IMG/VR virus record: IMGVR_UViG_3300045988_162372
Length of the DNA stretch: 64,000 nucleotides
Reading direction: 5' to 3' (one strand)
From: a virus
The notes beneath the pieces are model-generated. The model saw only the letters and a program-made list of their open reading frames with translations, had not been told where the DNA came from and did not search any database. Shown one piece after another: positions 39,791 to 53,961 of this stretch. The position numbers and the translations under genes are program-made. How positions within the stretch are numbered: position 1 is the first letter of the stretch; each line of letters opens with the position of its first letter.

Positions 39791-41122
39791 ATGAAATTTG
39801 TAGAATTATTTGATAACGATATGAAACCAAAGTGGGATATAATAGAAAACATCCCACAGTTTGCAGCACTTAAGACAACCAAGCAAAGCAATACTTGGCA
39901 TAAAGAGGGTGATGCTCTTAGGCATACACGGCTTGTTGTTGAAAATATGCAAAGAGAATTGGATGAACAGAATATTGACAATCATTCTGCATATTATCTT
40001 GTAATGATGTCTGCCGCACTTTGTCATGACTTAGGCAAGGCAACTTCAACCAAATGGGATAAAGAGAAGAATGACTATGTATGTAATCATCATGGACAAG
40101 CAGGTGAGAATATTACCCGTATGTTGTTTTATGATGAGAAATTTATCATAAGGGAACTTGTATGCTATATGGTACGTTGGCATATGAATTTACATCATAT
40201 CTTGGATGATGAGGAAAAAGTTGATGAGAAACTGATAAATATGGCTCACGGATGGGTATCAATTCAAGATATGTTACTTCTCAACAAATGTGATTCTCTT
40301 GGAAGCCAGAATGACATTGAAACAAGAGAATTCCTTGAGAACAGATGGGATACCATTAAGGAAAGAGCAGAGAAGTTGGATGTATTTGATATGGTCTATG
40401 ATGATTATAATACGAAACATATATGTGAAAATCTGAATACTGCCCTAAATGCATCTAATCCAATTGCTCCATTTTCATTTATGACACTAAATTGGAGGGA
40501 TGTGCGAGAGTCTTGTAGTAATATATTGAGGCATACTCCTATAAATTGGAAAACAAATAATATAAAGATATTAAATCAATTCACTGTCTTTATGATGGTA
40601 GGTATTCCTGGAAGTGGTAAAGATACTATTATACGAAAATACTTAAATGATATTCCAACTGTATGTAGAGATGATATCCGCACTGAAATAGGTATTCAAG
40701 GAGAGAAGCCTATGGGTAATAAAGAACAGGAGAAGAAAGTGACTCAAATATTCGAGGAAAGAATGTTGGAATATTGCAAACAAGGTAAGAGTTTTGTTAT
40801 TAATAATACAAACCTTAAAAAGCAATACCGTAACAGATTCTTGGATATCATAAAGCCTTATAAACCAGTCGTGATTTATATTTATGTGGAAGCTCCGTCA
40901 ATAGTTGATAATTTTGCAAGACGTGCTGGACAAATAGATAAGGATATAATACGCAGGATGGCTTCAAACTTTGATTTCCCTTATCCTACGGAATATACTA
41001 CTTTGTGGCTCGATATACAAGGTGAACCACAATTCACTGAAATATATGGTAACGCAATGATGAGTCATATAATTCAAGATATGATGCAACCAAGAAAGAA
41101 GAAAGATGAACAAGAACATTAA
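39791..41122 (+). CDS. HD-Pnk: HD phosphoesterase fused to P-loop polynucleotide 5'-kinase
   Basis: N-terminal H..(ALRHTRLV)..CHDLGKA..HHG HD domain; C-terminal MMVGIPGSGKDT Walker A, CRDDIR, NNTNL; same architecture as bacterial HD-Pnk end-healing enzymes. Confidence 0.8.
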   Translation: MKFVELFDNDMKPKWDIIENIPQFAALKTTKQSNTWHKEGDALRHTRLVVENMQRELDEQNIDNHSAYYLVMMSAALCHDLGKATSTKWDKEKNDYVCNHHGQAGENITRMLFYDEKFIIRELVCYMVRWHMNLHHILDDEEKVDEKLINMAHGWVSIQDMLLLNKCDSLGSQNDIETREFLENRWDTIKERAEKLDVFDMVYDDYNTKHICENLNTALNASNPIAPFSFMTLNWRDVRESCSNILRHTPINWKTNNIKILNQFTVFMMVGIPGSGKDTIIRKYLNDIPTVCRDDIRTEIGIQGEKPMGNKEQEKKVTQIFEERMLEYCKQGKSFVINNTNLKKQYRNRFLDIIKPYKPVVIYIYVEAPSIVDNFARRAGQIDKDIIRRMASNFDFPYPTEYTTLWLDIQGEPQFTEIYGNAMMSHIIQDMMQPRKKKDEQEH

Positions 41123-41369
41123 TCTATTTGGTGAGGACATCACTAAAGAAATCGAAGCAGAGGAAAGGAAACATAAATATTCAGAAAGGGCTAAGAAAGC
41201 GGCCGAAACAAGGAAAAGACATAAGGCTGAACAAGAAGCCCTTTTTGATAAAATGTTCACCATTGCGAGAAGTGAATGTGATTTATTTGGTAATAAATAT
41301 ACCGACGAGGAAAGAAAAGAAGCTGAGAAATATATTAGGGAAAACTTTAAAAAAAGAAATAAGAAATGA
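41106..41369 (+). CDS. hypothetical Lys/Glu-rich protein
   Basis: 87-aa ORF. Confidence 0.5.
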   Translation: MNKNINLFGEDITKEIEAEERKHKYSERAKKAAETRKRHKAEQEALFDKMFTIARSECDLFGNKYTDEERKEAEKYIRENFKKRNKK

Positions 41370-41785
41370 TAGTATCAGAAGAATTTTTGCTTGAGAAATT
41401 AAAAGGATACAAACAGAAAACTTGGTCAGGACATTGGACTAACAAGGGAAACATCCACTTTATTTTGTGGAATTTGTTAGGAATATTCAACGGACATTAT
41501 AATGTGGTTGTTAATCCAGAAACCTTTGAATATCGAGTTAAAAAGCATAGTGAATATGGTAATCTTGTTTCATACCTACCAACACAAGAAACAACCGTTT
41601 GGACAAAAGAAAATATGTCACAAGAACAAATAGATTATATTGAGCCTTGTATTGCCAAAACTTTGTATGATTTGCTATACCCTTCGATTTTTTCTTATAA
41701 TACAAAAGAAGGTTATTCCCAATGGTTATCCAATCTTCTTGTGGATGATGATACGTTTGAATTTACCTGGAAATGGCGAGAATAA
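41366..41785 (+). CDS. hypothetical protein
   Basis: 139-aa ORF, ATGA overlap. Confidence 0.55.
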   Translation: MIVSEEFLLEKLKGYKQKTWSGHWTNKGNIHFILWNLLGIFNGHYNVVVNPETFEYRVKKHSEYGNLVSYLPTQETTVWTKENMSQEQIDYIEPCIAKTLYDLLYPSIFSYNTKEGYSQWLSNLLVDDDTFEFTWKWRE

Positions 41786-41802
41786 ATTAAAAAATATAAA
41801 AT

Positions 41803-42489
41803 ATGGAATATACTCTTGAAACAAGTTCAGAAACTTTTATTAATAAAATAAAAAAATTTCTTCATTATGGAAACATAATGATAGATTTGGAAACATTGTC
41901 TACCAGAACCAATGCATCCATAATAAGCGTTGCTGCCGTAGAATTTGGATTAAATGGTGATACTGGCAGGGAAATGATATTAAAAATCAAACCATCAGAA
42001 TGGGGAAAATATGATAGACATATTGATGGTAATACAATCGCATGGTGGATGGGACAAGATGCAGAGGCTGTTAAAAACCTTTTTGCAAAGGACGGGGAAG
42101 ATTTCACGTTGCTTGATGCCTTATCTCATTTGTCTGATTTTGTAAAAGAATGTGATATGCCTATACCAATTACGCAAGAACAAGAAATGACTGCCAGTTT
42201 TATGAGCAGTTTCAGATACAGTGATGTAAAAGACAAAAGGATTAAAGTATGGGGAAATGGTTCTACAATGGATATTACAATTCTTCAATCTGCTTATGAG
42301 TATTTCAATATGCAGATACCGTGGCAATATTGGGCTGTAAATGATGTGCGTACTATTGTGGATTTAAACCCTGAAATTAAAAAGAACTGTACTTTTGAAG
42401 GTGTGAAACATAATCCTATTGACGATTGTAATTATCAGATTAAATATATGACTGAAACAATTAAAAATATTAGAGAAAATAGATATTAA
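41803..42489 (+). CDS. DEDDh 3'-5' exonuclease (Rv2179c-like exoribonuclease type)
   Basis: MIDLETLS (DxE), WGNGSTMDITIL (D), HNPIDDCNYQ (H-x4-D). Confidence 0.75.
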   Translation: MEYTLETSSETFINKIKKFLHYGNIMIDLETLSTRTNASIISVAAVEFGLNGDTGREMILKIKPSEWGKYDRHIDGNTIAWWMGQDAEAVKNLFAKDGEDFTLLDALSHLSDFVKECDMPIPITQEQEMTASFMSSFRYSDVKDKRIKVWGNGSTMDITILQSAYEYFNMQIPWQYWAVNDVRTIVDLNPEIKKNCTFEGVKHNPIDDCNYQIKYMTETIKNIRENRY

Positions 42490-42545
42490 TTTTTTTTACA
42501 AAAATTATATGTTGAAAATATTTTCGCATTAAAAAATTTAAAAAT

Positions 42546-42983
42546 ATGGCACTTTTGAAACTTATAGTTTATGCATTGTTAATTTGTACTGGGGTAATAG
42601 GGTTAATTTGCTTCGGATACTATTTATTATTCATCTTAAAAACTAATTTCGCAGAAACAAGAAAATATTTGGATCAATTTCCTGATAAATTTAAAAATTA
42701 TACTGATGAATATCATTCTTATTGTAATGGTGATATTCTAATACACTTATATGATAATAGGGATACAAAACGTTTGTACAATAGATATACAGTTACGATT
42801 GAATATAATTTATTGGGTTACATTATATATAATGATGCTATTAATATAATACGAGTACCGTATCCGTTTTTCAAAAAGGAAAGAAAGTGGCTTAATAATT
42901 TATTTAGACAAAAATATGAAAGAGTTAAAAAGCAAGAGATGAAAGAAATGAACAAATTAATAGAAGTAATGAAAAATAATTAG
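42546..42983 (+). CDS. membrane-anchored protein
   Basis: 145 aa, N-terminal helix. Confidence 0.55.
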   Translation: MALLKLIVYALLICTGVIGLICFGYYLLFILKTNFAETRKYLDQFPDKFKNYTDEYHSYCNGDILIHLYDNRDTKRLYNRYTVTIEYNLLGYIIYNDAINIIRVPYPFFKKERKWLNNLFRQKYERVKKQEMKEMNKLIEVMKNN

Positions 42984-42987
42984 AAAT

Positions 42988-43215
42988 ATGGAAAAGAAAG
43001 AACTAAACGAACACAATGAGTGTTATTATTGCAAACTCATGTACCGTATTCCTGGTGATGCGCATATTGGTTGTAAGAAGTTTTGTGAAGGTAATAAATT
43101 TAATGCACATGGCATTAGATGTGGATGGGTCGTAATTATGCCGATGCTTGACCTTTGCAATTTTGATCCTGTGTGGAAAGAAACCATGTGTCCGAATTTT
43201 GAAGAAAATAAATAA
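42988..43215 (+). CDS. hypothetical Cys-rich protein
   Basis: 75-aa ORF with seven Cys. Confidence 0.5.
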   Translation: MEKKELNEHNECYYCKLMYRIPGDAHIGCKKFCEGNKFNAHGIRCGWVVIMPMLDLCNFDPVWKETMCPNFEENK

Positions 43216-43235
43216 AACATTAAAATCATACAAAC

Positions 43236-43826
43236 ATGAAAAAGTTAAAAGAATGTTATAATTTGTATATTAACGAATGTATTGATAAAGATGCACTTAA
43301 AAGTCTGAATGAAGATATTATCAAGTATACAACGGAGATTGAGGAGATTTTATGTGAAAATGAGAATGAATTAAGAAGTTGTGGATATCCTATTCCAGAT
43401 AGAAATAATGTCACTAAACCTATTTTCTATCTTCACATAAATACTTTTGGCGGTTCTGTATATGACGGTCTTGGAATATACAACATCATCAGGAAATTGT
43501 CAGAAGATTATAAAGTCATCGCCTATTGTCGTGGCTATATCATGTCTATGGGTATTCCTATTATCCTTGCTGCGACAGAACGTTATTCATACCCTGATAC
43601 CACGTTTATGATACATGAAATAAGTAGTTTCTATTGGGGGAAATTGACTGAGGCAAAAGAAAACCTGCAAGAAATTGAACGTCTAAACAAAGCTATATGT
43701 GATATTATTGTTAGACACACTTCAATTACACAAGATATGTTGGATGATTGGTATAAACATAAGAAAGATGTGTTTATGTCGGCACAACAAGCACTTGATT
43801 ATAAGTTGATTGATAAAATACTCTAA
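43236..43826 (+). CDS. clpP: ClpP-like serine protease (S14)
   Basis: HINTFGGSVYDGLGIYNII, GYIMSMGIPIILAA (Ser), TFMIHE (His). Confidence 0.75.
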   Translation: MKKLKECYNLYINECIDKDALKSLNEDIIKYTTEIEEILCENENELRSCGYPIPDRNNVTKPIFYLHINTFGGSVYDGLGIYNIIRKLSEDYKVIAYCRGYIMSMGIPIILAATERYSYPDTTFMIHEISSFYWGKLTEAKENLQEIERLNKAICDIIVRHTSITQDMLDDWYKHKKDVFMSAQQALDYKLIDKIL

Positions 43827-43854
43827 TCAGTTATATTTTTTTAACGAAATATAT

Positions 43855-43885
43855 TTTGGTATAATTCTCTAATGTTGTACATTTG
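43855..43885 (+). promoter_or_regulatory. Bacteroidota-type promoter (-33/-7)
   Basis: TTTG-N19-TACATTTG upstream of ATG 43922. Confidence 0.6.
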
Positions 43886-43921
43886 CAATGTGAATAATAA
43901 AATACATATTGTAAATTAAAA

Positions 43922-44161
43922 ATGGAAAACAATGTTAGAGAATTTTTGGTATTGGAAGGTTATACAAATGATTTGTTGATGATAAATTCTTCAGGCTCAA
44001 TGAAAATGACAAGACTTATCAAGCTTGACCCAAACAATAAAGAATTGGATGAAGAAATTGTGGATATTGCTGTTACATCAACAAATGAATATGGAACGCA
44101 TCCGTTATTTGATGAGTTGCTTGGAAAGAAAATAAGATTAAAGGTAGAAATTTTGAAATAA
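43922..44161 (+). CDS. hypothetical protein
   Basis: 79-aa ORF after promoter. Confidence 0.5.
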   Translation: MENNVREFLVLEGYTNDLLMINSSGSMKMTRLIKLDPNNKELDEEIVDIAVTSTNEYGTHPLFDELLGKKIRLKVEILK

Positions 44162-44176
44162 TAAAAAGAGAATTGA

Positions 44177-45043
44177 ATGGCAATAAACCTTTTAAAAATT
44201 AACGCAGAAGCCGTACTATGTACGGGTGATTTGCATGGAAACCTGAATAGCATTGGATACCAGATTAAACAGTTTGGTATCCAAAATTCAGTTCTGATAT
44301 GTTGTGGGGATATTGGATTAGGCTTTAATAAGTTGGAATATTATAAACAATACTTGAATAAGTTGAAGAAGGTATTGACCAAATATAATGATTATGTCAT
44401 TCTTCTTAGGGGTAATCATGATGATAAGGCGTATTTCGACAATAAGCTCATTAATGATAAAAGGATTAAGGCGGTTTCTGATTATACAATAGTGCAGGTA
44501 TATCCTATGGATGATACAGAATGCCTTTCTCTTCCATACAATGTGTTATGTGTCGGTGGAGCTACCTCAATTGACAGAATGCACAGAATTAGTGTAAACA
44601 ACAAACTGTTGATGGAATATTCCAAACATCATAATATGGAAACTTTGGAGGAAGCAAAAAAGAATTGTCTGAAATGTTATTGGGAAGACGAAGCACCTGT
44701 ATATGATGAAGAGACACTGAATGAGATTAAGGAACAAGGAATTACCATTGATGCTGTAACAACACATACTTGTCCATCTTTCTGTCAACCATTGACTAAG
44801 GATGGCATTCGATATTGGATGCAGTTTGACACTAATCTTGAAAAAGATATTGACAATGAACGCAACGTGATGGATAAACTTTATGATAAGTTGATAGAGG
44901 ATAAACACCCATTATCTGTATGGTGTTATGGCCATTATCATTATCATCATAATGACAGTATTAATGGAATAAGATATTACCTCCTTGATATGGAGAGAAA
45001 TGGAAAGATGGATATAATAACGATATATAAAAGTGGAAAATAA
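44177..45043 (+). CDS. calcineurin-like metallophosphoesterase (lambda-PPase-like)
   Basis: CTGDLHGN, CCGDIGLGF, LRGNHDD, GHYHYHH. Confidence 0.8.
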   Translation: MAINLLKINAEAVLCTGDLHGNLNSIGYQIKQFGIQNSVLICCGDIGLGFNKLEYYKQYLNKLKKVLTKYNDYVILLRGNHDDKAYFDNKLINDKRIKAVSDYTIVQVYPMDDTECLSLPYNVLCVGGATSIDRMHRISVNNKLLMEYSKHHNMETLEEAKKNCLKCYWEDEAPVYDEETLNEIKEQGITIDAVTTHTCPSFCQPLTKDGIRYWMQFDTNLEKDIDNERNVMDKLYDKLIEDKHPLSVWCYGHYHYHHNDSINGIRYYLLDMERNGKMDIITIYKSGK

Positions 45044-45347
45044 GATAGATTATAAAGAACAAATATTTCAGTTAAAGCATTTGCATCAACAAACAGGACA
45101 AGTAATTGATAAAATGTCGTTGTTGGAAATAGATGCAGAACATATGTATGCAAGAAACATTCTTTATCTATTATTTTCAATAATGAGGAAGAATTTGAAT
45201 ACATTGGATGAGTTTTTGCAAATACTAAATGACATAGAACATGAACAAGAGGAAGGACATAAACTTATCAAACGAATATACTCTAAAACTTGGTTCGCAA
45301 ATTCTTCTGGGATAGAAATTTCAAATGATAACGAGACAAAAACTTAA
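45033..45347 (+). CDS. hypothetical protein (GTG start uncertain)
   Basis: 104-aa ORF; alternative ATG at 45114. Confidence 0.4.
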   Translation: MENKIDYKEQIFQLKHLHQQTGQVIDKMSLLEIDAEHMYARNILYLLFSIMRKNLNTLDEFLQILNDIEHEQEEGHKLIKRIYSKTWFANSSGIEISNDNETKT

Positions 45348-45353
45348 TATATA

Positions 45354-45887
45354 ATGAAAGGAATAATTGCAATAAAAAATATATCGGATGTAATCACAAA
45401 TTCTTCAAGCGAAGTGTTTATGTTACAAACTGATGGTGTCATTAAAGGTATTAAAAATAACATTGAAAAATATCACAATGAACATATGTGGTATCACAAC
45501 GATTTTTCTGAACTTCCTGATGATATTAAACAGCTATTAGGCGGTGAGGATATTTTAAATGAAGCGGAAAAAATGCTCAATGAATCTTCTGGCGAAGGTG
45601 GAGAAATTAACATTTATGATTGGGAGGACGCATATAACGGATATTGCAAAATATACAAAAAACATTCCAAGAGTTTCACACCCGAACAGTGGGCAAAAAA
45701 AATTGATATACCATTGGAAGAATTGAAGAAAATCATTGTGGTTGATGTGGATTGGGCAGCTAAAAGTACTATCTCCATGTTAAAAGAACGTTATAATGTT
45801 GTCTTTGAAGGAGATATTTATTACGAATCAAAATATAGTGATGCCTTTGCGTATGCTTCCTATGCTAACGGAGAAAACTATCTATAA
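45354..45887 (+). CDS. ITNSSSE-motif family protein, copy 1
   Basis: N-terminus MKGIIAIKNISDVITNSSSEVFML; C-terminal IIVVDVDW. Confidence 0.6.
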   Translation: MKGIIAIKNISDVITNSSSEVFMLQTDGVIKGIKNNIEKYHNEHMWYHNDFSELPDDIKQLLGGEDILNEAEKMLNESSGEGGEINIYDWEDAYNGYCKIYKKHSKSFTPEQWAKKIDIPLEELKKIIVVDVDWAAKSTISMLKERYNVVFEGDIYYESKYSDAFAYASYANGENYL

Positions 45888-45896
45888 CAAAAATTT

Positions 45897-46580
45897 TTGA
45901 ATATGAAACACTACGATTCTATTCCAAGTATCAAAGAGGACAAATCTTTGGTCGGAGAAAATATTTTTGCTTTTAATAAATTGGACGGACAAAACTTCTG
46001 TGCAAAATATTCTCCAAAAGTGAATGAATTTACAATGTTTGGCAGTAGAACACAAAATGTGGATGAAACTTCCGAACAATTCGGAGATGCTGTTAGATAT
46101 TTCAAAGCTAACTTGGAGACACCGTTGAAAGAAGTTATTAAAAATAACAAAGGGAAAAATCAAATCTTTCATGGTATTGAAGAGATAACATTTTTCTTTG
46201 AATGGTATGGTGAGCATAGTTTTGCTGGTTTTCATCAGCCTAATGAAACATTAAAACTTGCATTAATAGATGTTTTTTTGAAAAAGAAAGGTTATATTGA
46301 GCCTAAAATATTTGTTGATATATTCTATGATAATCCATCAATAGAAACACCATTATTGGTATATAGTGGAAAATTGACAAATGATTTCATAAAGGCAATT
46401 CAAGAAAATGACTATACAGAAGCAAATTGTAACTTAAATGAGGTAAAAGAAGGCGTTGTCTGCAAACGTTCAACACTTCTGAAAGGGCAAAGACTTCCAA
46501 TGGTAAAGATTAAAACACAATGGTGGCTTGATAAATTGCATAGCACATTCTCAGAAGAACAATGCAAGAAATTAGAATAA
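45897..46580 (+). CDS. Rnl2-like RNA ligase nucleotidyltransferase
   Basis: motif I FNKLDGQN, III FFFEWYGEHSFAG, IV LALIDVF, V EGVVCK, then VKIKT. Confidence 0.7.
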   Translation: MNMKHYDSIPSIKEDKSLVGENIFAFNKLDGQNFCAKYSPKVNEFTMFGSRTQNVDETSEQFGDAVRYFKANLETPLKEVIKNNKGKNQIFHGIEEITFFFEWYGEHSFAGFHQPNETLKLALIDVFLKKKGYIEPKIFVDIFYDNPSIETPLLVYSGKLTNDFIKAIQENDYTEANCNLNEVKEGVVCKRSTLLKGQRLPMVKIKTQWWLDKLHSTFSEEQCKKLE

Positions 46581-46622
46581 GATAATAAAAAGGATTTATT
46601 AACAATTAAAATTGAATATAAT

Positions 46623-48167
46623 ATGACAAAAGAAATTTTCACGCTGTCAGAAAATGCGAAACTGGAATATTCTTGTACAGTAGTTCAAATTGGGGAAGTA
46701 AAACCTGTTGAAGGTTCAGACTTTCTTGGTTCAACACTAGTAAATGGTAATCCTATAGTTGTGCGCAAAGACCAAATCAAGGAGGGTGATATAATGATAT
46801 ATGCCCCTATTGAAACTGTGCTTAACAAACAATTTCTCTCTGTAAACAACCTATTTGAAATTGGAGAAAAAGAACTGAATTCAAATTTTAAGGAAGTTCA
46901 AGCACTTATCAATGAGGGAAAGAAAGAAGATGCTAAGAAAAAGGTGGGCTTCTTTAATAAGCATGGTCGTGTGAAGCTTATCCGCTTGCGTGGGTGTCCG
47001 TCTATGGGTTTCCTTATTGAAAAGGAGTCACTTGTAAAGTGGAAACCTAAGTTGCAGGACGTTGATTTCTCTCAATACGTGGATAAGGACTTTGATACCA
47101 TTGATGGGGAACTCTTTGTCAAGGTATATGTGCCTTATGTACCACCTATAAGAACAAGGGATAAATCAGCAAAACGAGACAAGAAATTAAAAAGATTTTC
47201 AAGACTTATTGAAGGTGAATTTAAGTTTCATTACGATACACAACAACTTGCTCGTAACATTCATCTGATTAAGCCAGATGATAAAGTGTTAATAACCAAC
47301 AAATTACATGGCACGAGCTTCATTTGCGCTAACATATTGACAAAGAAACCTGTTCAGCTTTCCAACATTCAAAAGCTCTTTAACAAGATGTCTAATAAAA
47401 AGATTAAGAAGTTAAAAAAGCAGAATGCTACTCACTATGCAGATAAGAAAAGATTGGAAAATCAAATCAAGCAGTATGAAAAGATTAAGAGACCTACATA
47501 TACTGTCGGATATGGTAATATCTATTCTTCTCATACTGTCATTAAAAATCAGTATATTAATAGTGGTGTAAATAGTGGCTTCTATGGAGTGGATATTTGG
47601 GGAGTATACGATAAGATTATGAAACCTTATATTCCACAAGGTATGACGTTGTATGGCGAAATCTGCGGTTATCTTGACGCTACTGGCAAGATGATACAGA
47701 AGGGTTACGACTATGGCTGCAAAGTAGGCGAAAATTTTTTGATGCCGTATCGTATCACCACTACAAAAGAAGACCATACTAAGAAGGAATGGACTGTGAA
47801 AGAGGTATATGATTGGACTGTCAAACTCTTGAAAGAACATCCTGAATTAAAAAAGAATGTAAGACCTATTACAATTCTTTACAGTGGTACATTAAAGGAC
47901 TTGTATCCAGAAATTAGTGTTTCTGATCATTGGCATGAGAATGTTCTTGAAACTATGAGAAATGATAAGGAACATTTCGGAATGGAAGAGCTTGAACCTG
48001 AATGTATCAATAAAGTTCCGAGAGAAGGAATTGTCTTGAGAATTATGGAAGACCCTGTGGCTGAGGCATTTAAGTTGAAGAGTTTCCGCTTTCTTGACAG
48101 AGAGAGGTCTGAAATGGACAAGGGACAAGTTGATATGGAAATGGCTGATGCCTACACTGAACAATAA
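46623..48167 (+). CDS. RNA ligase with N-terminal OB-like domain (Rnl5-like architecture)
   Basis: N-terminal VVQIGEVKPVEGSDFLGSTLVNGNPIVV (OB/tRNA-binding-like); motif I TNKLHGTSF, III TLYGEICGY, V EGIVLRI..FKLKS. Confidence 0.7.
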   Translation: MTKEIFTLSENAKLEYSCTVVQIGEVKPVEGSDFLGSTLVNGNPIVVRKDQIKEGDIMIYAPIETVLNKQFLSVNNLFEIGEKELNSNFKEVQALINEGKKEDAKKKVGFFNKHGRVKLIRLRGCPSMGFLIEKESLVKWKPKLQDVDFSQYVDKDFDTIDGELFVKVYVPYVPPIRTRDKSAKRDKKLKRFSRLIEGEFKFHYDTQQLARNIHLIKPDDKVLITNKLHGTSFICANILTKKPVQLSNIQKLFNKMSNKKIKKLKKQNATHYADKKRLENQIKQYEKIKRPTYTVGYGNIYSSHTVIKNQYINSGVNSGFYGVDIWGVYDKIMKPYIPQGMTLYGEICGYLDATGKMIQKGYDYGCKVGENFLMPYRITTTKEDHTKKEWTVKEVYDWTVKLLKEHPELKKNVRPITILYSGTLKDLYPEISVSDHWHENVLETMRNDKEHFGMEELEPECINKVPREGIVLRIMEDPVAEAFKLKSFRFLDRERSEMDKGQVDMEMADAYTEQ

Positions 48168-48169
48168 AT

Positions 48170-48199
48170 AAATCCCCACAATACGAAAAGTGGGGATTT
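48170..48199 (+). terminator. terminator-like hairpin
   Basis: AAATCCCCAC / GTGGGGATTT 10-bp stem directly after the stop; short T tail. Confidence 0.55.
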
Positions 48200-48230
48200 C
48201 AAATATTAAACTCTAAAAATTGTAGAAATT

Positions 48231-48740
48231 ATGAAGAAAATTAACATTAAATCATTGACGGACGTGATTACAAACTCTTCGACAGAGATATTCACAATCT
48301 ATAATAAAGAGGCTGTTAATAAAATCAAACAGATGGTTAATTCTATACTTGCGCTGAGTGACGCTACTTCTAATCTGACATTCGATGACTTGTTTGAGGT
48401 TGATTATCGTCTTTACGATTATGGAACGGGAGAACTTATCATAAATCTTGTAGAAAAACTGAAAGAAAAAGGCTATATAGAACATGCAGAAGCTATCAAT
48501 GCTACCGTTACAACGGAAGAAGAATTGTGGAACTATTCCAAACAAAACAATATCTATGATGTTGTTATGGAAATTATCGAAAAAATTGATGATGATAATT
48601 ACGACGATTACCGTATAATAGATGGTATTCATATCAAAGCCAAAAATAATCCTAATGTGGATAAAGCAAAACTTGACAAGGCGGTTGATATGCTTAATAA
48701 CATCGACCACATCTTTGAACAATACGCTTCTTATTGCTAA
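48231..48740 (+). CDS. ITNSSSE-motif family protein, copy 2
   Basis: N-terminus MKKINIKSLTDVITNSSTEIFTI. Confidence 0.6.
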   Translation: MKKINIKSLTDVITNSSTEIFTIYNKEAVNKIKQMVNSILALSDATSNLTFDDLFEVDYRLYDYGTGELIINLVEKLKEKGYIEHAEAINATVTTEEELWNYSKQNNIYDVVMEIIEKIDDDNYDDYRIIDGIHIKAKNNPNVDKAKLDKAVDMLNNIDHIFEQYASYC

Positions 48741-48745
48741 ATGAC

Positions 48746-48770
48746 AAAATCACAGTGCATTGTGATTTTT
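48746..48770 (+). terminator. rho-independent terminator
   Basis: AAAATCACA / TGTGATTTT stem, loop GTGCAT, T tail; a degenerate copy of the same hairpin lies at 48807-48831. Confidence 0.6.
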
Positions 48771-48841
48771 GAAGAAATAAGATAATTTTGAAACATTGTT
48801 GAGTATAAAATTCACATTACAGTGTGATTTTGCATTAATTA

Positions 48842-48882
48842 ACGTCAAATATTTGCATATGTCAGATATTTGACGTATTTTT
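48842..48882 (+). terminator. hairpin with T tail (terminator or operator)
   Basis: ACGTCAAATAT / ATATTTGACGT 11-bp stem, 13-nt loop, then ATTTTT. Confidence 0.5.
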
Positions 48883-48901
48883 GTGTTCAAATAAAAGGAT
48901 T

Positions 48902-49162
48902 ATGATTAAGAAGAATAAAGGATTGAGAAATGCAATAAAAAAAGCGGAAGAGAAATATTGTGAAGCATCTTCTGCATTGCAGTTGATAAAACAATATGTA
49001 GTGTTTCAAGGGTTTGATGATGAAACGCCTGAAATATCTATTGCCTCTGGTGATGAAATAATTGCATTGTATAAAGGAAGAGAAATTGATAGAAACGGAA
49101 TAATAGACCTTATGGAAATACGAGGTTTTATCACACCCGAAGATTTTGGATTTTACAATTAA
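48902..49162 (+). CDS. hypothetical protein
   Basis: ATG 48902 (MIKKNKGLRN..) after the hairpins. Confidence 0.5.
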   Translation: MIKKNKGLRNAIKKAEEKYCEASSALQLIKQYVVFQGFDDETPEISIASGDEIIALYKGREIDRNGIIDLMEIRGFITPEDFGFYN

Positions 49163-49181
49163 CAAAAGAATATGAAAGATT

Positions 49182-49523
49182 ATGCTGAGATTATTCAATT
49201 ACAAAGAAACAAACTTAAATCATCTGGTACATGAACTTCAACGAGAAAAAGTCATTGAAGGATATGTATCTTGGGAACGATTAGATAGGTTTAATGATAA
49301 CCATGACTATCAAATCTTAGAATGGGATAAATTTAGAAAGGAAAGAAAGGTATCTTTTTGGTGGAAATGTACAACCATCTTCTTTTTCATCTATTATCTT
49401 TTGGTGTTGATATATTGTTTGTTAAAACTATTGTTCACTGGTAGTTTCTATATATCAACTCAAAGCACATTGGGAAAAATACAAATGAAATGGGCTGATA
49501 AAATTAAATTTGATATCGCATGA
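49182..49523 (+). CDS. membrane-anchored protein
   Basis: 113 aa with one C-terminal-half helix (TTIFFFIYYLLVLIYCLL). Confidence 0.5.
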   Translation: MLRLFNYKETNLNHLVHELQREKVIEGYVSWERLDRFNDNHDYQILEWDKFRKERKVSFWWKCTTIFFFIYYLLVLIYCLLKLLFTGSFYISTQSTLGKIQMKWADKIKFDIA

Positions 49524-49822
49524 AATACAGGCTACCAAGAAAATTAAAGAAAGCTGTCAAGAAATGTATTATCATTTCTGGCGTTGATACGAATTCTAAA
49601 CTGACCACAATTAGGGTAGTCGGTAATGTCAAATATGTCGGAAGACATACAAAATATACTAAAAAGGCAATTAGAATTCTTAGACAAAGAGATTATGACG
49701 CATTCCATAAACGATTAGTAAACATTTTAAAAAATTCATACGCTAAAAGTATAAATAAAGAAAATTTAAAATTTTCAAAGGTTTTGTATGATTGGGATAT
49801 TATTATCAGGGAGAAAAATTAA
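49520..49822 (+). CDS. hypothetical basic protein
   Basis: 100 aa, Lys/Arg-rich; ATGA overlap. Confidence 0.5.
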   Translation: MKYRLPRKLKKAVKKCIIISGVDTNSKLTTIRVVGNVKYVGRHTKYTKKAIRILRQRDYDAFHKRLVNILKNSYAKSINKENLKFSKVLYDWDIIIREKN

Positions 49823-50224
49823 ATGAAAAAGATTATTAAGAACGTATCAGATGTGATTACGAATTCTTCCAGTGAAGTTTTCGTGATGAATAAAGAAGAT
49901 GCTTGTGAAATTGCGCTCTTCGATAAAGACAATGAAACCTATGATTGTATTTCAATTCATAAGATGGATGAGAATTGGGTGAGAACACAAGGAAGTTGGG
50001 AAGCACAAATGATTTGCGACCTTCTTAAAATTAACAATCCATTCAATGAGAATTTCTATCCAGATGAAGATGATTGGTCTGAATTTGTAGATGAACATTT
50101 GGATGATATGAAAGAGAATGTATTTGGAAAATACTACATAGACATTGAAGACCATTTTGCTAATGCGGAAGAAATCCTTGAATTTTCAAGAAGCCATTGT
50201 GAATGGTCTGACTATAGACATTAA
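49823..50224 (+). CDS. ITNSSSE-motif family protein, copy 3
   Basis: MKKIIKNVSDVITNSSSEVFVM; C-terminal KYYIDIEDHFANAEEI. Confidence 0.6.
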   Translation: MKKIIKNVSDVITNSSSEVFVMNKEDACEIALFDKDNETYDCISIHKMDENWVRTQGSWEAQMICDLLKINNPFNENFYPDEDDWSEFVDEHLDDMKENVFGKYYIDIEDHFANAEEILEFSRSHCEWSDYRH

Positions 50225-50241
50225 AAACTAAAATAGAAAAT

Positions 50242-50652
50242 ATGAAACAATGTTTTATAATTAAATCAATCAGTGATATCATTACGAACTCGTCTTCCGA
50301 AGTTTTTGTTTTGAACAAGGAAGATGCAAGATATTTTGCAATACGTTCATTTGATGAAGATACTTGTGATTGTATTTCAGTTACTAAAATGGACTATGGT
50401 TGGATATACGAACTAGGACGTTTTGAGACAGAAATTTTCCAAACATTGCTTGGGATAGCTGACGAGTTATTGTCCAGAGATACTACACCAACAGAAGAAG
50501 AGTGGAATGCTTTTTGTTTGAAATATTCGGATGAAATAGAAGAAAAGGTACTTAACAAATACATTATTGAAATCGAAGATCATTACCTTAATGCAATTGA
50601 AGAAATTGATAAGGCACGTGATAAATGTTTATATTATGAGAACTTACACTAA
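50242..50652 (+). CDS. ITNSSSE-motif family protein, copy 4
   Basis: MKQCFIIKSISDIITNSSSEVFVL; C-terminal KYIIEIEDHYLNAIEEI. Confidence 0.6.
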   Translation: MKQCFIIKSISDIITNSSSEVFVLNKEDARYFAIRSFDEDTCDCISVTKMDYGWIYELGRFETEIFQTLLGIADELLSRDTTPTEEEWNAFCLKYSDEIEEKVLNKYIIEIEDHYLNAIEEIDKARDKCLYYENLH

Positions 50653-50666
50653 AAAAAAATATAATT

Positions 50667-51116
50667 ATGAAATATCATTTACTAAAAATCAAATCAATTA
50701 CAGATGTGATAACTAACTCATCTACAGAAGTATTTTTGTTGAAAAATACAAATGCATTCAAAGAGTTGAATGACTCATTGCGTTCGCTAAAAGCTGATTA
50801 TATCTTTAATACCGAAGAGGTATTAAAAGAATATCTTTCCGATTGTTATGAAGGTAATTCGTATAAATATGAATATTTATCAAACTTCTTGGATTCTAAT
50901 CCGTTGGCTAATTATGACTTTATCTATATGGTCAAAGATAATCTTAAGAAATCTTTTGATGAAACATGGGAATTTGTCAAATCGTGCTATCTGCCTTTGA
51001 TCGGCTATGCGGTCATTACTACTGAAGACGATTGCCTTTCTGATATGCAGTCGTTGGAATTGGATAAGATATGTGAGTTCAAATCAAAACACGGCGGATT
51101 TTTTGACCGCTACTAA
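50667..51116 (+). CDS. ITNSSSE-motif family protein, copy 5
   Basis: MKYHLLKIKSITDVITNSSTEVFLL; C-terminal GYAVITTEDD. Confidence 0.6.
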   Translation: MKYHLLKIKSITDVITNSSTEVFLLKNTNAFKELNDSLRSLKADYIFNTEEVLKEYLSDCYEGNSYKYEYLSNFLDSNPLANYDFIYMVKDNLKKSFDETWEFVKSCYLPLIGYAVITTEDDCLSDMQSLELDKICEFKSKHGGFFDRY

Positions 51117-51129
51117 AAATAAGGGAAAA

Positions 51130-51678
51130 ATGAGGATATATGTCGTTTTGAAATTCCCTTCTCTGCTGACAGATGATAACATCTTTCTGAGTGAAGAGGA
51201 CGCTTATAAATGCGCATCACAGTTGGGAAGGGAATACAAAGTTCACTCTTATCTCGTGAATGAAAGTTATGAAGCGAATGAGAAATTCCTTTGGCGAGTT
51301 TCCATATATAATGATGGAAATAATAAAGTAGATAAAGTGATTGGAAAACCAGAGAAAGAATTGGTGCGCTACTTCGATACTGATAATGAGAGCTATATGT
51401 TCCTAATTCCATCATATACCTATGATGAAGCTTTGAACAAAGCATTGGCTTATTATAAGGATATCGAAAGTAAACCCGAAAAATACAACTTCCTTAAAGA
51501 AAAATTAATATCCAAGAAAACGGATTTCTATCATAAAGGATTGCCATATAAATGCCCTACCTACGAACTTGGGACAAATAACATTCTTCTTAGAAAAGAC
51601 GAATATATTAACTACGCAGTCTTGACAAAAGAACAGTCAAACATTGTTTCTAAATTTAACATCATTTATCTCGGATAA
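51130..51678 (+). CDS. hypothetical protein
   Basis: ATG 51130 (MRIYVVLKF..) after stop of copy 5; 51007 extension overlaps it. Confidence 0.55.
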   Translation: MRIYVVLKFPSLLTDDNIFLSEEDAYKCASQLGREYKVHSYLVNESYEANEKFLWRVSIYNDGNNKVDKVIGKPEKELVRYFDTDNESYMFLIPSYTYDEALNKALAYYKDIESKPEKYNFLKEKLISKKTDFYHKGLPYKCPTYELGTNNILLRKDEYINYAVLTKEQSNIVSKFNIIYLG

Positions 51679-51702
51679 TTTTTATTTTTCAAATCTTTGT
51701 TA

Positions 51703-51710
51703 TATCTTTG
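51703..51710 (+). promoter_or_regulatory. -7 box TATCTTTG (no clear -33)
   Basis: intergenic, 30 nt upstream of ATG 51741. Confidence 0.45.
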
Positions 51711-51740
51711 CAATGTGAAACTTAAAAAACAGAGTATCAA

Positions 51741-52202
51741 ATGAAACAGGAAATCACAGAAAAACAGGAGGCTTACCTTTGTGTGTGCTTTCTATTAAAA
51801 AAACTTGGATACAAAGAGGGTTCAAGGGCTTCAGTTGTAATATTTGATGACGATTATATATATGATGAAGATCCTGACCATCCTGAAAGTCATAAAAAGG
51901 GTGAGATGCGTTTCTATGACCACTATTATAAAAACAGTGATGAGGATACCAATCGTTGTGAGATGCCCACATTGGAAGAGATTAATATGTGGTTGTTGAA
52001 ACAGAAGGGCTATTATGTAGGAATTAATATCAATGATGGTAAACACTTTGATTACACTGTTTACGAAAAACAGAAAGGATGTACTATCAGCCTATTTGAA
52101 TGGGTAGGAATTATTCACGGCATTAGTGAAAGCCTTAATCCAGAAGAATCATATATTAAAGGTTTTAGAAGTATATTGACAAAACTAAAAACATCGAAAT
52201 AA
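51741..52202 (+). CDS. hypothetical protein
   Basis: 153-aa ORF. Confidence 0.55.
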   Translation: MKQEITEKQEAYLCVCFLLKKLGYKEGSRASVVIFDDDYIYDEDPDHPESHKKGEMRFYDHYYKNSDEDTNRCEMPTLEEINMWLLKQKGYYVGININDGKHFDYTVYEKQKGCTISLFEWVGIIHGISESLNPEESYIKGFRSILTKLKTSK

Positions 52203-52205
52203 ATT

Positions 52206-53189
52206 ATGGCAAAGAAAATCAGCAAGGACAAATGGGTAGGTCTAAAAATGAGAAACCTCCCCGATTATAATTACAGTGCGATTTGGAGCAATCTGGTTAC
52301 AATCCGTCTTGACAAAGGCGAGGTAATGGAACTTCCACCTGACCAGAGCGAATTCTATGATGTCTCTCTTGGTAACAAATGTACCACTGGAAAATGTAAT
52401 TTTTGTTATGTGGCAGCAAATCCAAATGGAAAATACTATGAGGATATTTGCGAAACTTGGAAAAAGTGGATGTCATTGTATCCAGATAAGTATGATGATA
52501 AAGGTAATTTACTAACTATCAAACCTTTACAAATAGCAATAGGAAGTGAGGGAGAGCCTTTGGAACATCCAAATATATGTGATTTCCTCAAAACGGTATA
52601 CGAAACGGATGTTGTTCCTAACTACACAACTAATGGTGTGATTCTTTCATATTGGGATAAGCCTGAAAGCAAGTATTATCAAAAAGCAAATGATATCCTT
52701 GCTGTAACATCTCTTTATGTTGGCGGTGTTGCGGTCAGCTTTGGAAACAAGGCACTTCGTCAATATGCAAAGAACGCTATTGAAGGATTGCTTGCAAAAG
52801 GTAATTGTCATGTTATGATACATCATATCATTTCGACAATGGAAAGTGTGGATGAATTTGTTGAATGTTGGAAAGAATATGGCGACAAGATTAAAAATCA
52901 TGTATTGCTTCCATTGATGCCTTCTGGTAGAAGCAAAAAAGGTATTGATGACGGCGTGTTTGAATATCTTGAGAAGGTTGTAAAGGAGAATAATATAGGT
53001 AATGTTGCCTTTGGTGCGCACTTTATCAAGTATCTTGAAAAATCAGACAAGATTAAGACATGGCTTTATCCTGCTGAGAGTTATTCAAAAAACGTAATCC
53101 TTACAAAAGACTGTGTACAGATTACACCAAGTTCATTTGATTTGAAACCTATCAAAAAGATTGATTTAAGTAATATTAATTTAAAATAA
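52206..53189 (+). CDS. radical-SAM-like enzyme with Cx4Cx2C cluster motif
   Basis: GNKCTTGKCNFCYVA, IGSEGEPLEHP (GGE-like), NYTTNG. Confidence 0.65.
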   Translation: MAKKISKDKWVGLKMRNLPDYNYSAIWSNLVTIRLDKGEVMELPPDQSEFYDVSLGNKCTTGKCNFCYVAANPNGKYYEDICETWKKWMSLYPDKYDDKGNLLTIKPLQIAIGSEGEPLEHPNICDFLKTVYETDVVPNYTTNGVILSYWDKPESKYYQKANDILAVTSLYVGGVAVSFGNKALRQYAKNAIEGLLAKGNCHVMIHHIISTMESVDEFVECWKEYGDKIKNHVLLPLMPSGRSKKGIDDGVFEYLEKVVKENNIGNVAFGAHFIKYLEKSDKIKTWLYPAESYSKNVILTKDCVQITPSSFDLKPIKKIDLSNINLK

Positions 53190-53190
53190 A

Positions 53191-53445
53191 ATGATAAATA
53201 TTAAACGATTTTTATGTCATCATAAATATGATTATATTATATGCGAAGATGTCATTGCTAATATTGAAAATGACAATGATGATTTAGAAGATGAATCACT
53301 TTATATGGCAATTGTATATTGTCCGAAATGTGGAAAAATATTTCTAAAAACAAGGATTTTCAATAATATGTTATCTGGCATTGACAAAATAAGAGAATTT
53401 CAAAGAATTACTAAGAAAAGTATTAAAAAAATAACAGTTAAGTAA
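53191..53445 (+). CDS. small zinc-ribbon-like protein
   Basis: 84 aa; CHH..C...CPKCG. Confidence 0.5.
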   Translation: MINIKRFLCHHKYDYIICEDVIANIENDNDDLEDESLYMAIVYCPKCGKIFLKTRIFNNMLSGIDKIREFQRITKKSIKKITVK

Positions 53446-53448
53446 AAT

Positions 53449-53961
53449 ATGACACAAATTATTAAAAATACAGAGCTAATCACCTCATTAATTAAACAAG
53501 TAATCGAACACGAAGGTACTGGTGATAAGATATATAATTATTATGCTAATGTTTGCCGCTTAGTACCAGATAAAGTAATAATGGTAGATGACTTTACCGA
53601 ATTATTATATCCTATTTATTATCAAAAAGTTGCTGATGATTTGAATTTGCATAATAAAAAATGTTTCATCAGCATCCCTATTACAGGTGTTGAAGAACAA
53701 GCAAGAGAAGAATGTAAAAAGGTGCAAAAACTATTCTCTGAATATTTGACAGATTGTGAAGTATTCTCACCATTTGAAGTTGCTCCTGAAAAGAATATGC
53801 CTGATTCCTATTATATGGGTAAAGATATTGAACAACTTATGAATTGTAATATTATGATACAAATGAACGGATGGGAAAATAGTAAAGGATGTAGAGTAGA
53901 GAATTTCGTTGCAGATACTTATAACATTGAAAAGATTCCTGTTGATAGTTTGTTTATTTAA
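53449..53961 (+). CDS. DUF4406 / nucleoside-deoxyribosyltransferase-like domain protein
   Basis: C-terminal half KKCFISIPITG...VFSPFE...MNCNIMIQMNGWENSKGCRVENFVA matches the DUF4406 pattern (..cD.v..l.gW..S.G...E...A). Confidence 0.55.
   Translation: MTQIIKNTELITSLIKQVIEHEGTGDKIYNYYANVCRLVPDKVIMVDDFTELLYPIYYQKVADDLNLHNKKCFISIPITGVEEQAREECKKVQKLFSEYLTDCEVFSPFEVAPEKNMPDSYYMGKDIEQLMNCNIMIQMNGWENSKGCRVENFVADTYNIEKIPVDSLFI

Follow-up and report, generated by a model that had tools for sequence, protein, structure and literature searches.

What do five small genes with a common beginning and otherwise divergent sequences do in the genome of a large phage, and which of their neighbours do they work with? 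The question is raised by a stretch of viral DNA of 64,000 nucleotides (IMG/VR record IMGVR_UViG_3300045988_162372; the whole stretch is referred to as the window in the rest of the text), in which five small acidic proteins carry the same N-terminal motif, D[VI]ITNSS[ST]E[VI]F (hereafter the tag). Their genes bracket two RNA-ligase genes and lie upstream of a gene that encodes a radical SAM enzyme. We found that the tag marks a large family which is the dedicated genomic partner of that radical SAM enzyme, and we propose, with the probabilities for and against evenly balanced, that its members are substrates of the enzyme. The genes concerned are the following:

45354-45887, + strand: paralog 1, subfamily A, 177 amino acids, tag DVITNSSSEVF coded at 45387-45419
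48231-48740, + strand: paralog 2, subfamily B, 169 amino acids, tag DVITNSSTEIF coded at 48261-48293
49823-50224, + strand: paralog 3, subfamily CD, 133 amino acids, tag coded at 49850-49882, acidic strand YYIDIEDH, C-terminus RH
50242-50652, + strand: paralog 4, subfamily CD, 136 amino acids, tag DIITNSSSEVF coded at 50275-50307
50667-51116, + strand: paralog 5, subfamily E, 149 amino acids, tag DVITNSSTEVF coded at 50703-50735
52206-53189, + strand: radical SAM enzyme, 327 amino acids, with C59-x4-C64-x2-C67, GSxGEP, PNYTTNG and HVLLPLMPSGRS

An earlier note on this DNA, made from the sequence alone, had described the five open reading frames (ORFs). All five are present on the + strand at the coordinates that it gave, the N-terminal strings and C-terminal acidic strands that it quoted match the sequence, and its N-S-S-[ST]-E codons proved exact on re-check. 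Each protein begins with M-K and a short hydrophobic stretch containing lysine, followed by the tag at residues 10-23. Alignment of the five revealed 12 invariant columns (M1, K2, I7, K8, D12, I14, T15, N16, S17, S18, E20 and F22), every one of them within residues 1-22, for an overall identity of 18-33%. The five ORFs are a real family that is conserved as protein and not as a DNA repeat, as had been argued: over the 11 codons of the motif, pairs of paralogs have 8-11 of 11 residues alike, compared to only 2-5 of 11 third positions. A six-frame regular-expression search found the full motif at exactly five places in the window, and 0 matches to a degenerate DNA pattern of the motif are expected in shuffles. 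Likewise, a hidden Markov model of the family scored exactly five of the window ORFs (E-values of 5e-24 to 6e-32), the next best ORF being at E 0.14. The acidity claimed for the five proteins also held (isoelectric points of 4.3-4.8), and the body of paralog 1 exhibits SG.GG and VDxDW motifs that are conserved in the alignment of its subfamily.

A profile built from the five paralogs retrieved 1443 clusters when sequences were grouped at 90% identity, and 602 (E ≤ 0.001) when they were grouped at 50%. The listed members are 35-265 amino acids long, nameless and devoid of Pfam domains, and their source names are 'hypothetical protein' or missing. They come from phages of about 60 to more than 360 kb and from many bacterial and archaeal phyla; close relatives of subfamily CD of the window (representative P0009) and of the enzyme (about 70% identical) occur on metagenomic contigs as long as 368 kb. 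Of 267 sequences retrieved, 260 contain the motif [ST]D[VIL][IV]TNSS[ST]E[VI][FY], and in nearly all of these its T is one of residues 11-17. The parts that follow the motif fall into four BLAST-connected subfamilies, A (45354), B (48231), CD (49823 and 50242) and E (50667), of which B is the largest C-terminal group (119 of 249 sequences). Profile-profile comparison of these C-terminal parts gave probabilities below 1%, except for CD-E (50%) and CD-A (13%). The family is unassigned, as the earlier note had said: the five paralogs and 105 family members had no match in Pfam, PHROGs, NCBIfam, PADLOC or a PDB profile search, and neither PDB sequences nor Foldseek searches of PDB and BFVD placed them. 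Furthermore, when three paralogs and the radical SAM enzyme were compared by tblastn with 50,697 GenBank phages, no match was returned, the RNA-ligase positive control having worked, and a full-text literature search for the motif strings found no paper.

Every neighbour in the window was compared with 49 loci fetched via the small proteins or the motif. A homologue of the gene at 52206 was present in 44 of these 49 loci (38-71% identity), usually directly after the array of tag genes, and no other window neighbour was conserved across them. Of the neighbours pointed out in the earlier note, the radical SAM gene proved to be the decisive one, and the association that it guessed at with the RNA ligases, discussed below, failed. 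Fetching loci with the enzyme profile gave the same picture from the other side. All 80 IMG/VR loci obtained in this way hold one to six motif genes, all upstream of the enzyme gene and on the same strand, with 0 downstream and 0 antisense, and the last motif gene usually ends between -21 and +45 nt from the enzyme match. Motif genes were still found in 33 of 33 loci after dereplication at 85% enzyme identity. Distant phage contigs carry them as same-strand tandem arrays of 2-6 copies. In its genomic associations the tag family is dedicated to a single radical SAM enzyme, and this linkage is obligate in phages and in cells; the pairing of the two appears to be undescribed. Some motif genes stand away from the enzyme gene: 45354 and 48231 lie 4-7 kb upstream of it in the window, and the 218-kb contig IMGVR_UViG_3300026549_000032 has three arrays (L036, L043 and L044) totalling eight motif genes, with one enzyme locus detected, beside L036. 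Such an arrangement fits an enzyme that acts in trans. Some of the remote members on the same contig have 238-268 residues after the tag.

The partnership extends to cellular genomes. Searching a genome collection with the enzyme profile returned 69 loci, seven of which are contigs of metagenome-assembled genomes (MAGs) with a phage-type enzyme (31-71% identity), six of these with phage-type tags. The remaining 62 code for distant enzyme homologues (23-38% identity over the matched part, 23-34% for most) and come from Proteobacteria (Rhizobium, Agrobacterium and Sphingomonas among them), Desulfobacterota, Acidobacteriota, Verrucomicrobiota, Chloroflexi, cyanobacteria and several archaea. In 66 of the 69 loci the distance from the enzyme gene to an ORF with the tag core is no more than 3.5 kb, and two of the three exceptions are on truncated contigs. 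That the linkage survived so deep a divergence between phages and cells counts for an enzyme and its partner. In most cellular loci the tag ORF is located directly upstream and codes for a protein of about 133 residues, always annotated 'hypothetical protein', that starts with M-K-[IV]-[KR]-x-[DG]-F-[VI]-[ST]-N-S-S-S-T-S-F and continues beyond the tag for some 120 residues. In this branch T stands at E20, and G often stands at D12. The universal core of the tag over phages and cells is phi-[ST]-N-S-S-[ST]-x-phi-[FY]. The genes recur in the 62 cellular loci as a cassette:

same strand: SMEK_N + NACHT (Avs2-like) NTPase, about 885 amino acids, in 57 of 62 loci
same strand: protein of unknown role, about 121 amino acids, in 54 of 62 loci
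same strand: tag protein, about 133 amino acids, in 56 of 62 loci
same strand: radical SAM/SPASM enzyme, about 353 amino acids, in 62 of 62 loci

An example is found on a Rhizobium sp. chromosome (L139:6460-10924), and most of the loci L139-L200 share its layout. This four-gene cassette is not among the PADLOC 2.0 systems, and a literature search for a defence system combining a STAND protein with a radical SAM/SPASM enzyme returned analogous ones only (HXS, Ophion and the VMAP/FtsH ternary systems); the cassette looks like an undescribed conflict or defence operon. For the 121-residue protein, a role as a PqqD/RRE-like chaperone was considered and dropped, having no support in Pfam or PDB.

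The enzyme itself is well defined. Its cluster cysteines (C59, C64 and C67) and the GSxGEP and PNYTTNG motifs are invariant in the enzyme alignment, with an x3 spacing in some homologues. Many of its 746 homologues carry a precomputed PF04055 match, which was also found in the enzymes of loci L138 and L139, and one is named MoaA/NifB/PqqE/SkfB family radical SAM enzyme. Comparison of the phage and cellular enzymes by hhalign gave a probability of 99.9% (E 3.7e-33) over residues 10-244, a range that includes an N-terminal extension. The cellular enzyme contains both Radical_SAM and SPASM (PF13186) domains, and its best partial NCBIfam matches were to MftC (7e-21), followed by GeoRSP, AhbD, WgkB and PqqE, all below cut-off. 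At residues 288-311 of the phage enzyme, an invariant ES.SKNVIL..D.V.ITPSSF stands in register with the cellular SPASM hairpin C.AG..S.YVSED..V.PCSF, with no statistical support; this similarity in sequence suggests that the C-terminal segment may be a remnant of SPASM minus its cysteines. We also considered its I-T-P-S-S-F as a mimic of the tag (I-T-N-S-S-S-E-V-F), but it more probably corresponds to the '..PC' hairpin of SPASM with Cys changed to Ser, in an alignment that is not significant.

Several phage homologues of the enzyme are interrupted by an intein exactly at the third cluster cysteine (L001:10526-13051, and also L002, L005, L126, L129 and L130), with the junctions ..GKCNF/CLVPGTLI.. 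and ..LVHN/CYVSS.. (the slash marks the junction) and matches to Hint, Intein_splicing and LAGLIDADG. The intein region of L001 is split into several ORFs. Homologues P0270, P0277 and P0286 have instead an insertion of about 45 residues within the cysteine motif. The position of the intein fits an enzyme under strong functional constraint.

Structures were predicted with AlphaFold2 for subfamily A (45354, from a 15-sequence alignment) and subfamily CD (50242, from a 45-sequence alignment). The mean predicted local distance difference test score (pLDDT) was 81.8 for A and 87.7 for CD. In both models residues 1-16 scored below 50, compared to 75-94 for residues 21-150 of A and 90-98 for residues 21-130 of CD. 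The confident part of A spans residues 19-175, and residues 19-136 of CD scored 93-98. The first strand of the fold begins at S19-E20 in both, and the elements follow in the order β1-α-β2-(helical insert)-β3-α-β4, where β3 is the recurring distal acidic strand that the earlier note had picked out; the cellular family has it too, as EIFEIES. We infer a ferredoxin-like fold from this order of predicted elements. Foldseek found no significant match for A in PDB or for CD in PDB and BFVD (best E 0.08-0.2, TM ≤0.38), and the hits were only to ferredoxin-like proteins, all of them weak and non-significant. In the models the invariant segment is an N-terminal extension that is left unplaced, outside the confident fold, and the bodies of the subfamilies probably share an ancient fold although their sequences have diverged past detection. 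The low pLDDT of residues 1-16 in the two models fits a tag that is bound by another molecule.

One conserved enzyme, diverged partners that share a flexible tag at a fixed position, the gene order and spacing of precursor-maturase systems, and co-inheritance of the two components together point to a tag that is recognised, and probably modified. We thus propose, at a probability that we put neither above nor below an even chance, that the small proteins are a diversified set of substrates for a dedicated radical SAM maturase, which would recognise or modify them at the [ST]-N-S-S-[ST] tag. Each small acidic protein would consist of a flexible N-terminal tag of about 18 residues and a compact α/β domain. 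The enzyme would dock the extended tag, possibly via its own conserved N-terminal extension of about 55 residues, and its 5'-deoxyadenosyl radical would lead to the modification of a residue in or beside the N-S-S-[ST] segment. A set of proteins with different bodies would be matured in this way and would then act in trans. We infer the tag as the site of recognition or modification, the small proteins as substrates and not subunits, and every biological role discussed here. That the closest named relatives of the cellular enzyme, all matched below cut-off, are peptide or cofactor maturases counts for a maturase. The tandem diversification of the tag genes and the cellular STAND-NTPase context suggest that the proteins might have a role in conflict, either host takeover or counter-defence. 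A wider proposal is more tentative, and we see the balance of probability as lying against it: jumbo- and mega-phages and Avs2-like STAND-NTPase operons would have in common an ancient two-component module, in which a dedicated enzyme installs a new Ser/Asn modification on the tags of folded proteins, and phages would have expanded the substrate into effector arrays of 2-6 members for host takeover or counter-defence.

Several points weigh against the small proteins being substrates. Binding and modification of the tag by the enzyme are predictions. The presumed substrates are folded domains of 100-265 residues and not short peptides, and no protease or exporter gene was found among the conserved neighbours of the tag genes. 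Past residue 82 no cysteine is conserved in the enzyme of the window or in its phage relatives, so that they have no intact SPASM/twitch domain and lack the auxiliary clusters of SPASM maturases; the last 80 residues of the enzyme align to SPASM in the expected register, but not significantly. Its generic radical SAM core weakly matches viperins, which leaves room for small-molecule chemistry. The low pLDDT of the tag could equally mean strand pairing inside an oligomer. Finally, an invariant tag on diverged bodies fits a docking interface for alternative subunits equally well.

That last point is the core of the main rival, according to which the small proteins are docking, adaptor or regulatory subunits; we consider it unlikely on balance, though a serious contender. 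The tag strand would plug into the enzyme, for instance by β-strand addition, either on the partial barrel's open side or at the N-terminal extension, the bodies would recruit targets or tune activity, and the true substrate of the enzyme would be a nucleotide, a nucleic acid or another protein. Subunits would account equally well for the linkage data, and they would agree with several partners of different body per enzyme, with a tag left unplaced in monomer models, with the loss of the SPASM cysteines from the phage enzyme, with the weak similarity of its core to viperin-type nucleotide-modifying enzymes, and with a cellular operon that holds just one small tag protein and the further 121-residue protein. 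However, a strictly invariant polar sequence like N-S-S-[ST] typifies reaction sites more than docking strands, the gene order (several small genes, then a single enzyme gene downstream) is the classical precursor-maturase layout, and the nearest named relatives are peptide or protein maturases. Alternatively, the small proteins could be stand-alone enzymes or metal binders, with a site made of D12, N16, S17-S19, E20 and the distal acidic strand, and the radical SAM enzyme would be only a neighbour in the pathway. The presence of an acidic β3 in every subfamily and in the cellular family agrees with such a site, as does the predicted order of elements, which would place β1 (from S19-E20) beside β3 in a ferredoxin-like sheet. 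We nevertheless regard it as improbable, and the invariant D..TNSS[ST]E did not hold up as the catalytic or metal-binding core suspected in the earlier note: many cellular members have G for D12 and T for E20, residues 1-16 are outside the confident fold in both models, the bodies share no conserved residues, and no structural or sequence match to any enzyme was found.

The RNA ligases that lie between the first two paralogs suggested another role, that of accessory or specificity factors for the interleaved ligases, which we now consider highly improbable. The neighbours are all present as described, namely the genes at 45897 and 46623 for RNA_ligase-domain proteins and the one at 52206 for radical SAM, and the interleaving is conserved in the closest relatives, but only within the immediate clade of the window. 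An RNA ligase or RNA-repair gene lies within 10 kb in four of the 33 dereplicated loci (the window, L053, L132 and L138) and is missing from the other 29; in L132 the ligase is found past the enzyme gene, next to an uninterrupted array. In L138, a Woesebacteria MAG contig whose enzyme is only 31% identical to that of the window, a gene for an HNH + RNA_ligase fusion (L138:8347-9414) stands directly upstream of the tag gene-radical SAM pair; it is an independent second adjacency, which may be coincidental. The cellular operons have no ligase. Resemblance of the region to the Lak megaphages of Prevotella is confined to the 45897 ligase (identity of about 69% in nucleotides and 64% in amino acids), and 15 GenBank Lak genomes code for a homologue of this ligase while lacking the enzyme and the three paralogs tested, with no motif within 20 kb of the ligase; the Lak-A, Lak-B and Lak-C phages have kept the ligase, and the family is absent from them. 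Linkage to RNA-repair genes had been named beforehand as the test of this role, and homologues without such linkage are what these loci and genomes revealed. The last alternative, to which we attach the lowest probability, is a capsid-targeting propeptide with a prohead-protease site (S-x-E/, the slash marking the cut) on internal or ejected proteins. In phage T4, the internal proteins share a capsid-targeting sequence on tandem, fast-diversifying small genes, and the arrays described here resemble them in that tandem, diversified small genes share only a short N-terminal segment, one that ends in E. Unlike in T4, the tag is also found in operons on the chromosomes of free-living bacteria and archaea, where T replaces E; this largely refutes the role. 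In addition, the phage genes sit in replication or RNA-repair modules and not in head modules, and their constant partner is a radical SAM enzyme instead of head genes or a prohead protease.

Returning to the small proteins as substrates of a maturase, the closest precedents are the SPASM maturase-precursor systems (MftC/MftA, PqqE/PqqA, sactipeptides and streptide), in which the radical SAM gene also comes directly after one or several small genes, alike in a conserved recognition segment and variable elsewhere. The cellular homologues described here resemble these maturases in their Radical_SAM and SPASM domains and in their partial matches to MftC, GeoRSP, AhbD, WgkB and PqqE. The differences are several: no curated model reaches its cut-off for the enzyme, the partners are folded acidic proteins of 130-180 (up to 265) residues and not peptides, neither an RRE/PqqD domain nor a protease or exporter could be recognised, the phage enzymes are without any SPASM cysteines, and the conserved segment is Ser/Asn-rich and located at the extreme N-terminus. 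The anaerobic sulfatase-maturing enzymes (anSME/AtsB) are radical SAM/SPASM enzymes that act on a Ser or Cys of the sulfatase motif C/S-x-P/A-x-R. If the tag is modified, the two would be alike in that the Ser belongs to a motif that is short and invariant and lies close to the N-terminus, in a full-length protein and not a peptide. Here, however, the motif is [ST]-N-S-S-[ST]-x-phi-[FY], the partners are not sulfatases and have no Pfam domain, and no sequence match to anSME rose above noise. In the anti-phage system HXS, the effector HxsA is matured by the radical SAM enzymes HxsB and HxsC, and the operon codes for an additional small protein, HxsD (PMC13128918). The parallel is a radical-SAM-matured protein in phage-host conflict, the maturation being presumed in our case, and an operon that includes a further small protein; the cellular cassette likewise sits with a defence-type STAND NTPase. 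The five paralogs differ from HXS in having no His-Xaa-Ser repeats, one enzyme instead of two, only a weak and partial HxsC match (4.5e-6, with a cut-off of 268 bits), and a phage-borne, multi-copy organisation. Radical SAM enzymes paired with cognate proteins or peptides are a known kind of system, and the pair described here is absent from Pfam, PHROGs, NCBIfam, PADLOC and the literature searched. Four features set the pair apart from known systems: folded partners of 130-180 residues, a Ser/Asn tag right at the N-terminal end, phage arrays with multiple copies, and a SPASM-less phage enzyme as opposed to a SPASM-bearing cellular one.

The surroundings of the array in the window contain the following genes:

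39791: HD + AAA_33 (Pnk-like) protein
41803: Rv2179c-like 3'-5' exoribonuclease
43236: ClpP-like protein
44177: metallophosphoesterase
45897 and 46623: two RNA_ligase-domain proteins, one with a PHA02142 OB domain
53449: DUF4406 protein

Positions 39791-48167 hold a dense RNA-repair-like gene set (Pnk-like protein, exoribonuclease, metallophosphoesterase and the two ligase-domain proteins), and a close relative of the window, L201, has genes of Thg1-like and CTP_transf_like type, located on the opposite strand a few kb downstream. The ClpP gene raised the idea that the tag is a ClpP degron, which was rejected, no co-occurrence being found across the motif-fetched loci. Two ORFs, 51127-51678 (183 residues) and 51741-52202 (153 residues), separate paralog 5 from the radical SAM gene; neither matches the family, Pfam or NCBIfam, nor has a homologue in the other loci. 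In this stretch a 178-residue ORF precedes a 148-residue ORF in L201, compared to the 149-residue paralog preceding the 183-residue ORF in the window. The sole terminator-like hairpin in 44900-53600 (48842-48876, with a stem of 14 bp and then a T-run) stands just behind paralog 2, so that the array is probably not one transcript. At about 54000 the GC skew changes sign and the coding strand switches from + to -. Among the 54 window ORFs of at least 150 residues, 44 end in TAA and only four in TAG. No tRNA or Rfam element was found in the window.

For annotation, these results correct a tempting guilt-by-association with RNA ligases. If the small proteins are indeed substrates, they and their enzyme would constitute a widespread pair of radical SAM enzyme and protein substrate, nameless in the databases, whose family comprises no fewer than 602 clusters at 50% identity. 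The reaction site would be sharply bounded, as a four- or five-residue Ser/Asn motif at a fixed N-terminal position, and the reaction would be a new post-translational chemistry on folded proteins. The pair would also link the gene arrays of giant phages to cellular STAND-NTPase conflict operons and would provide a function-first handle on hundreds of 'hypothetical' genes in uncultivated megaphages.

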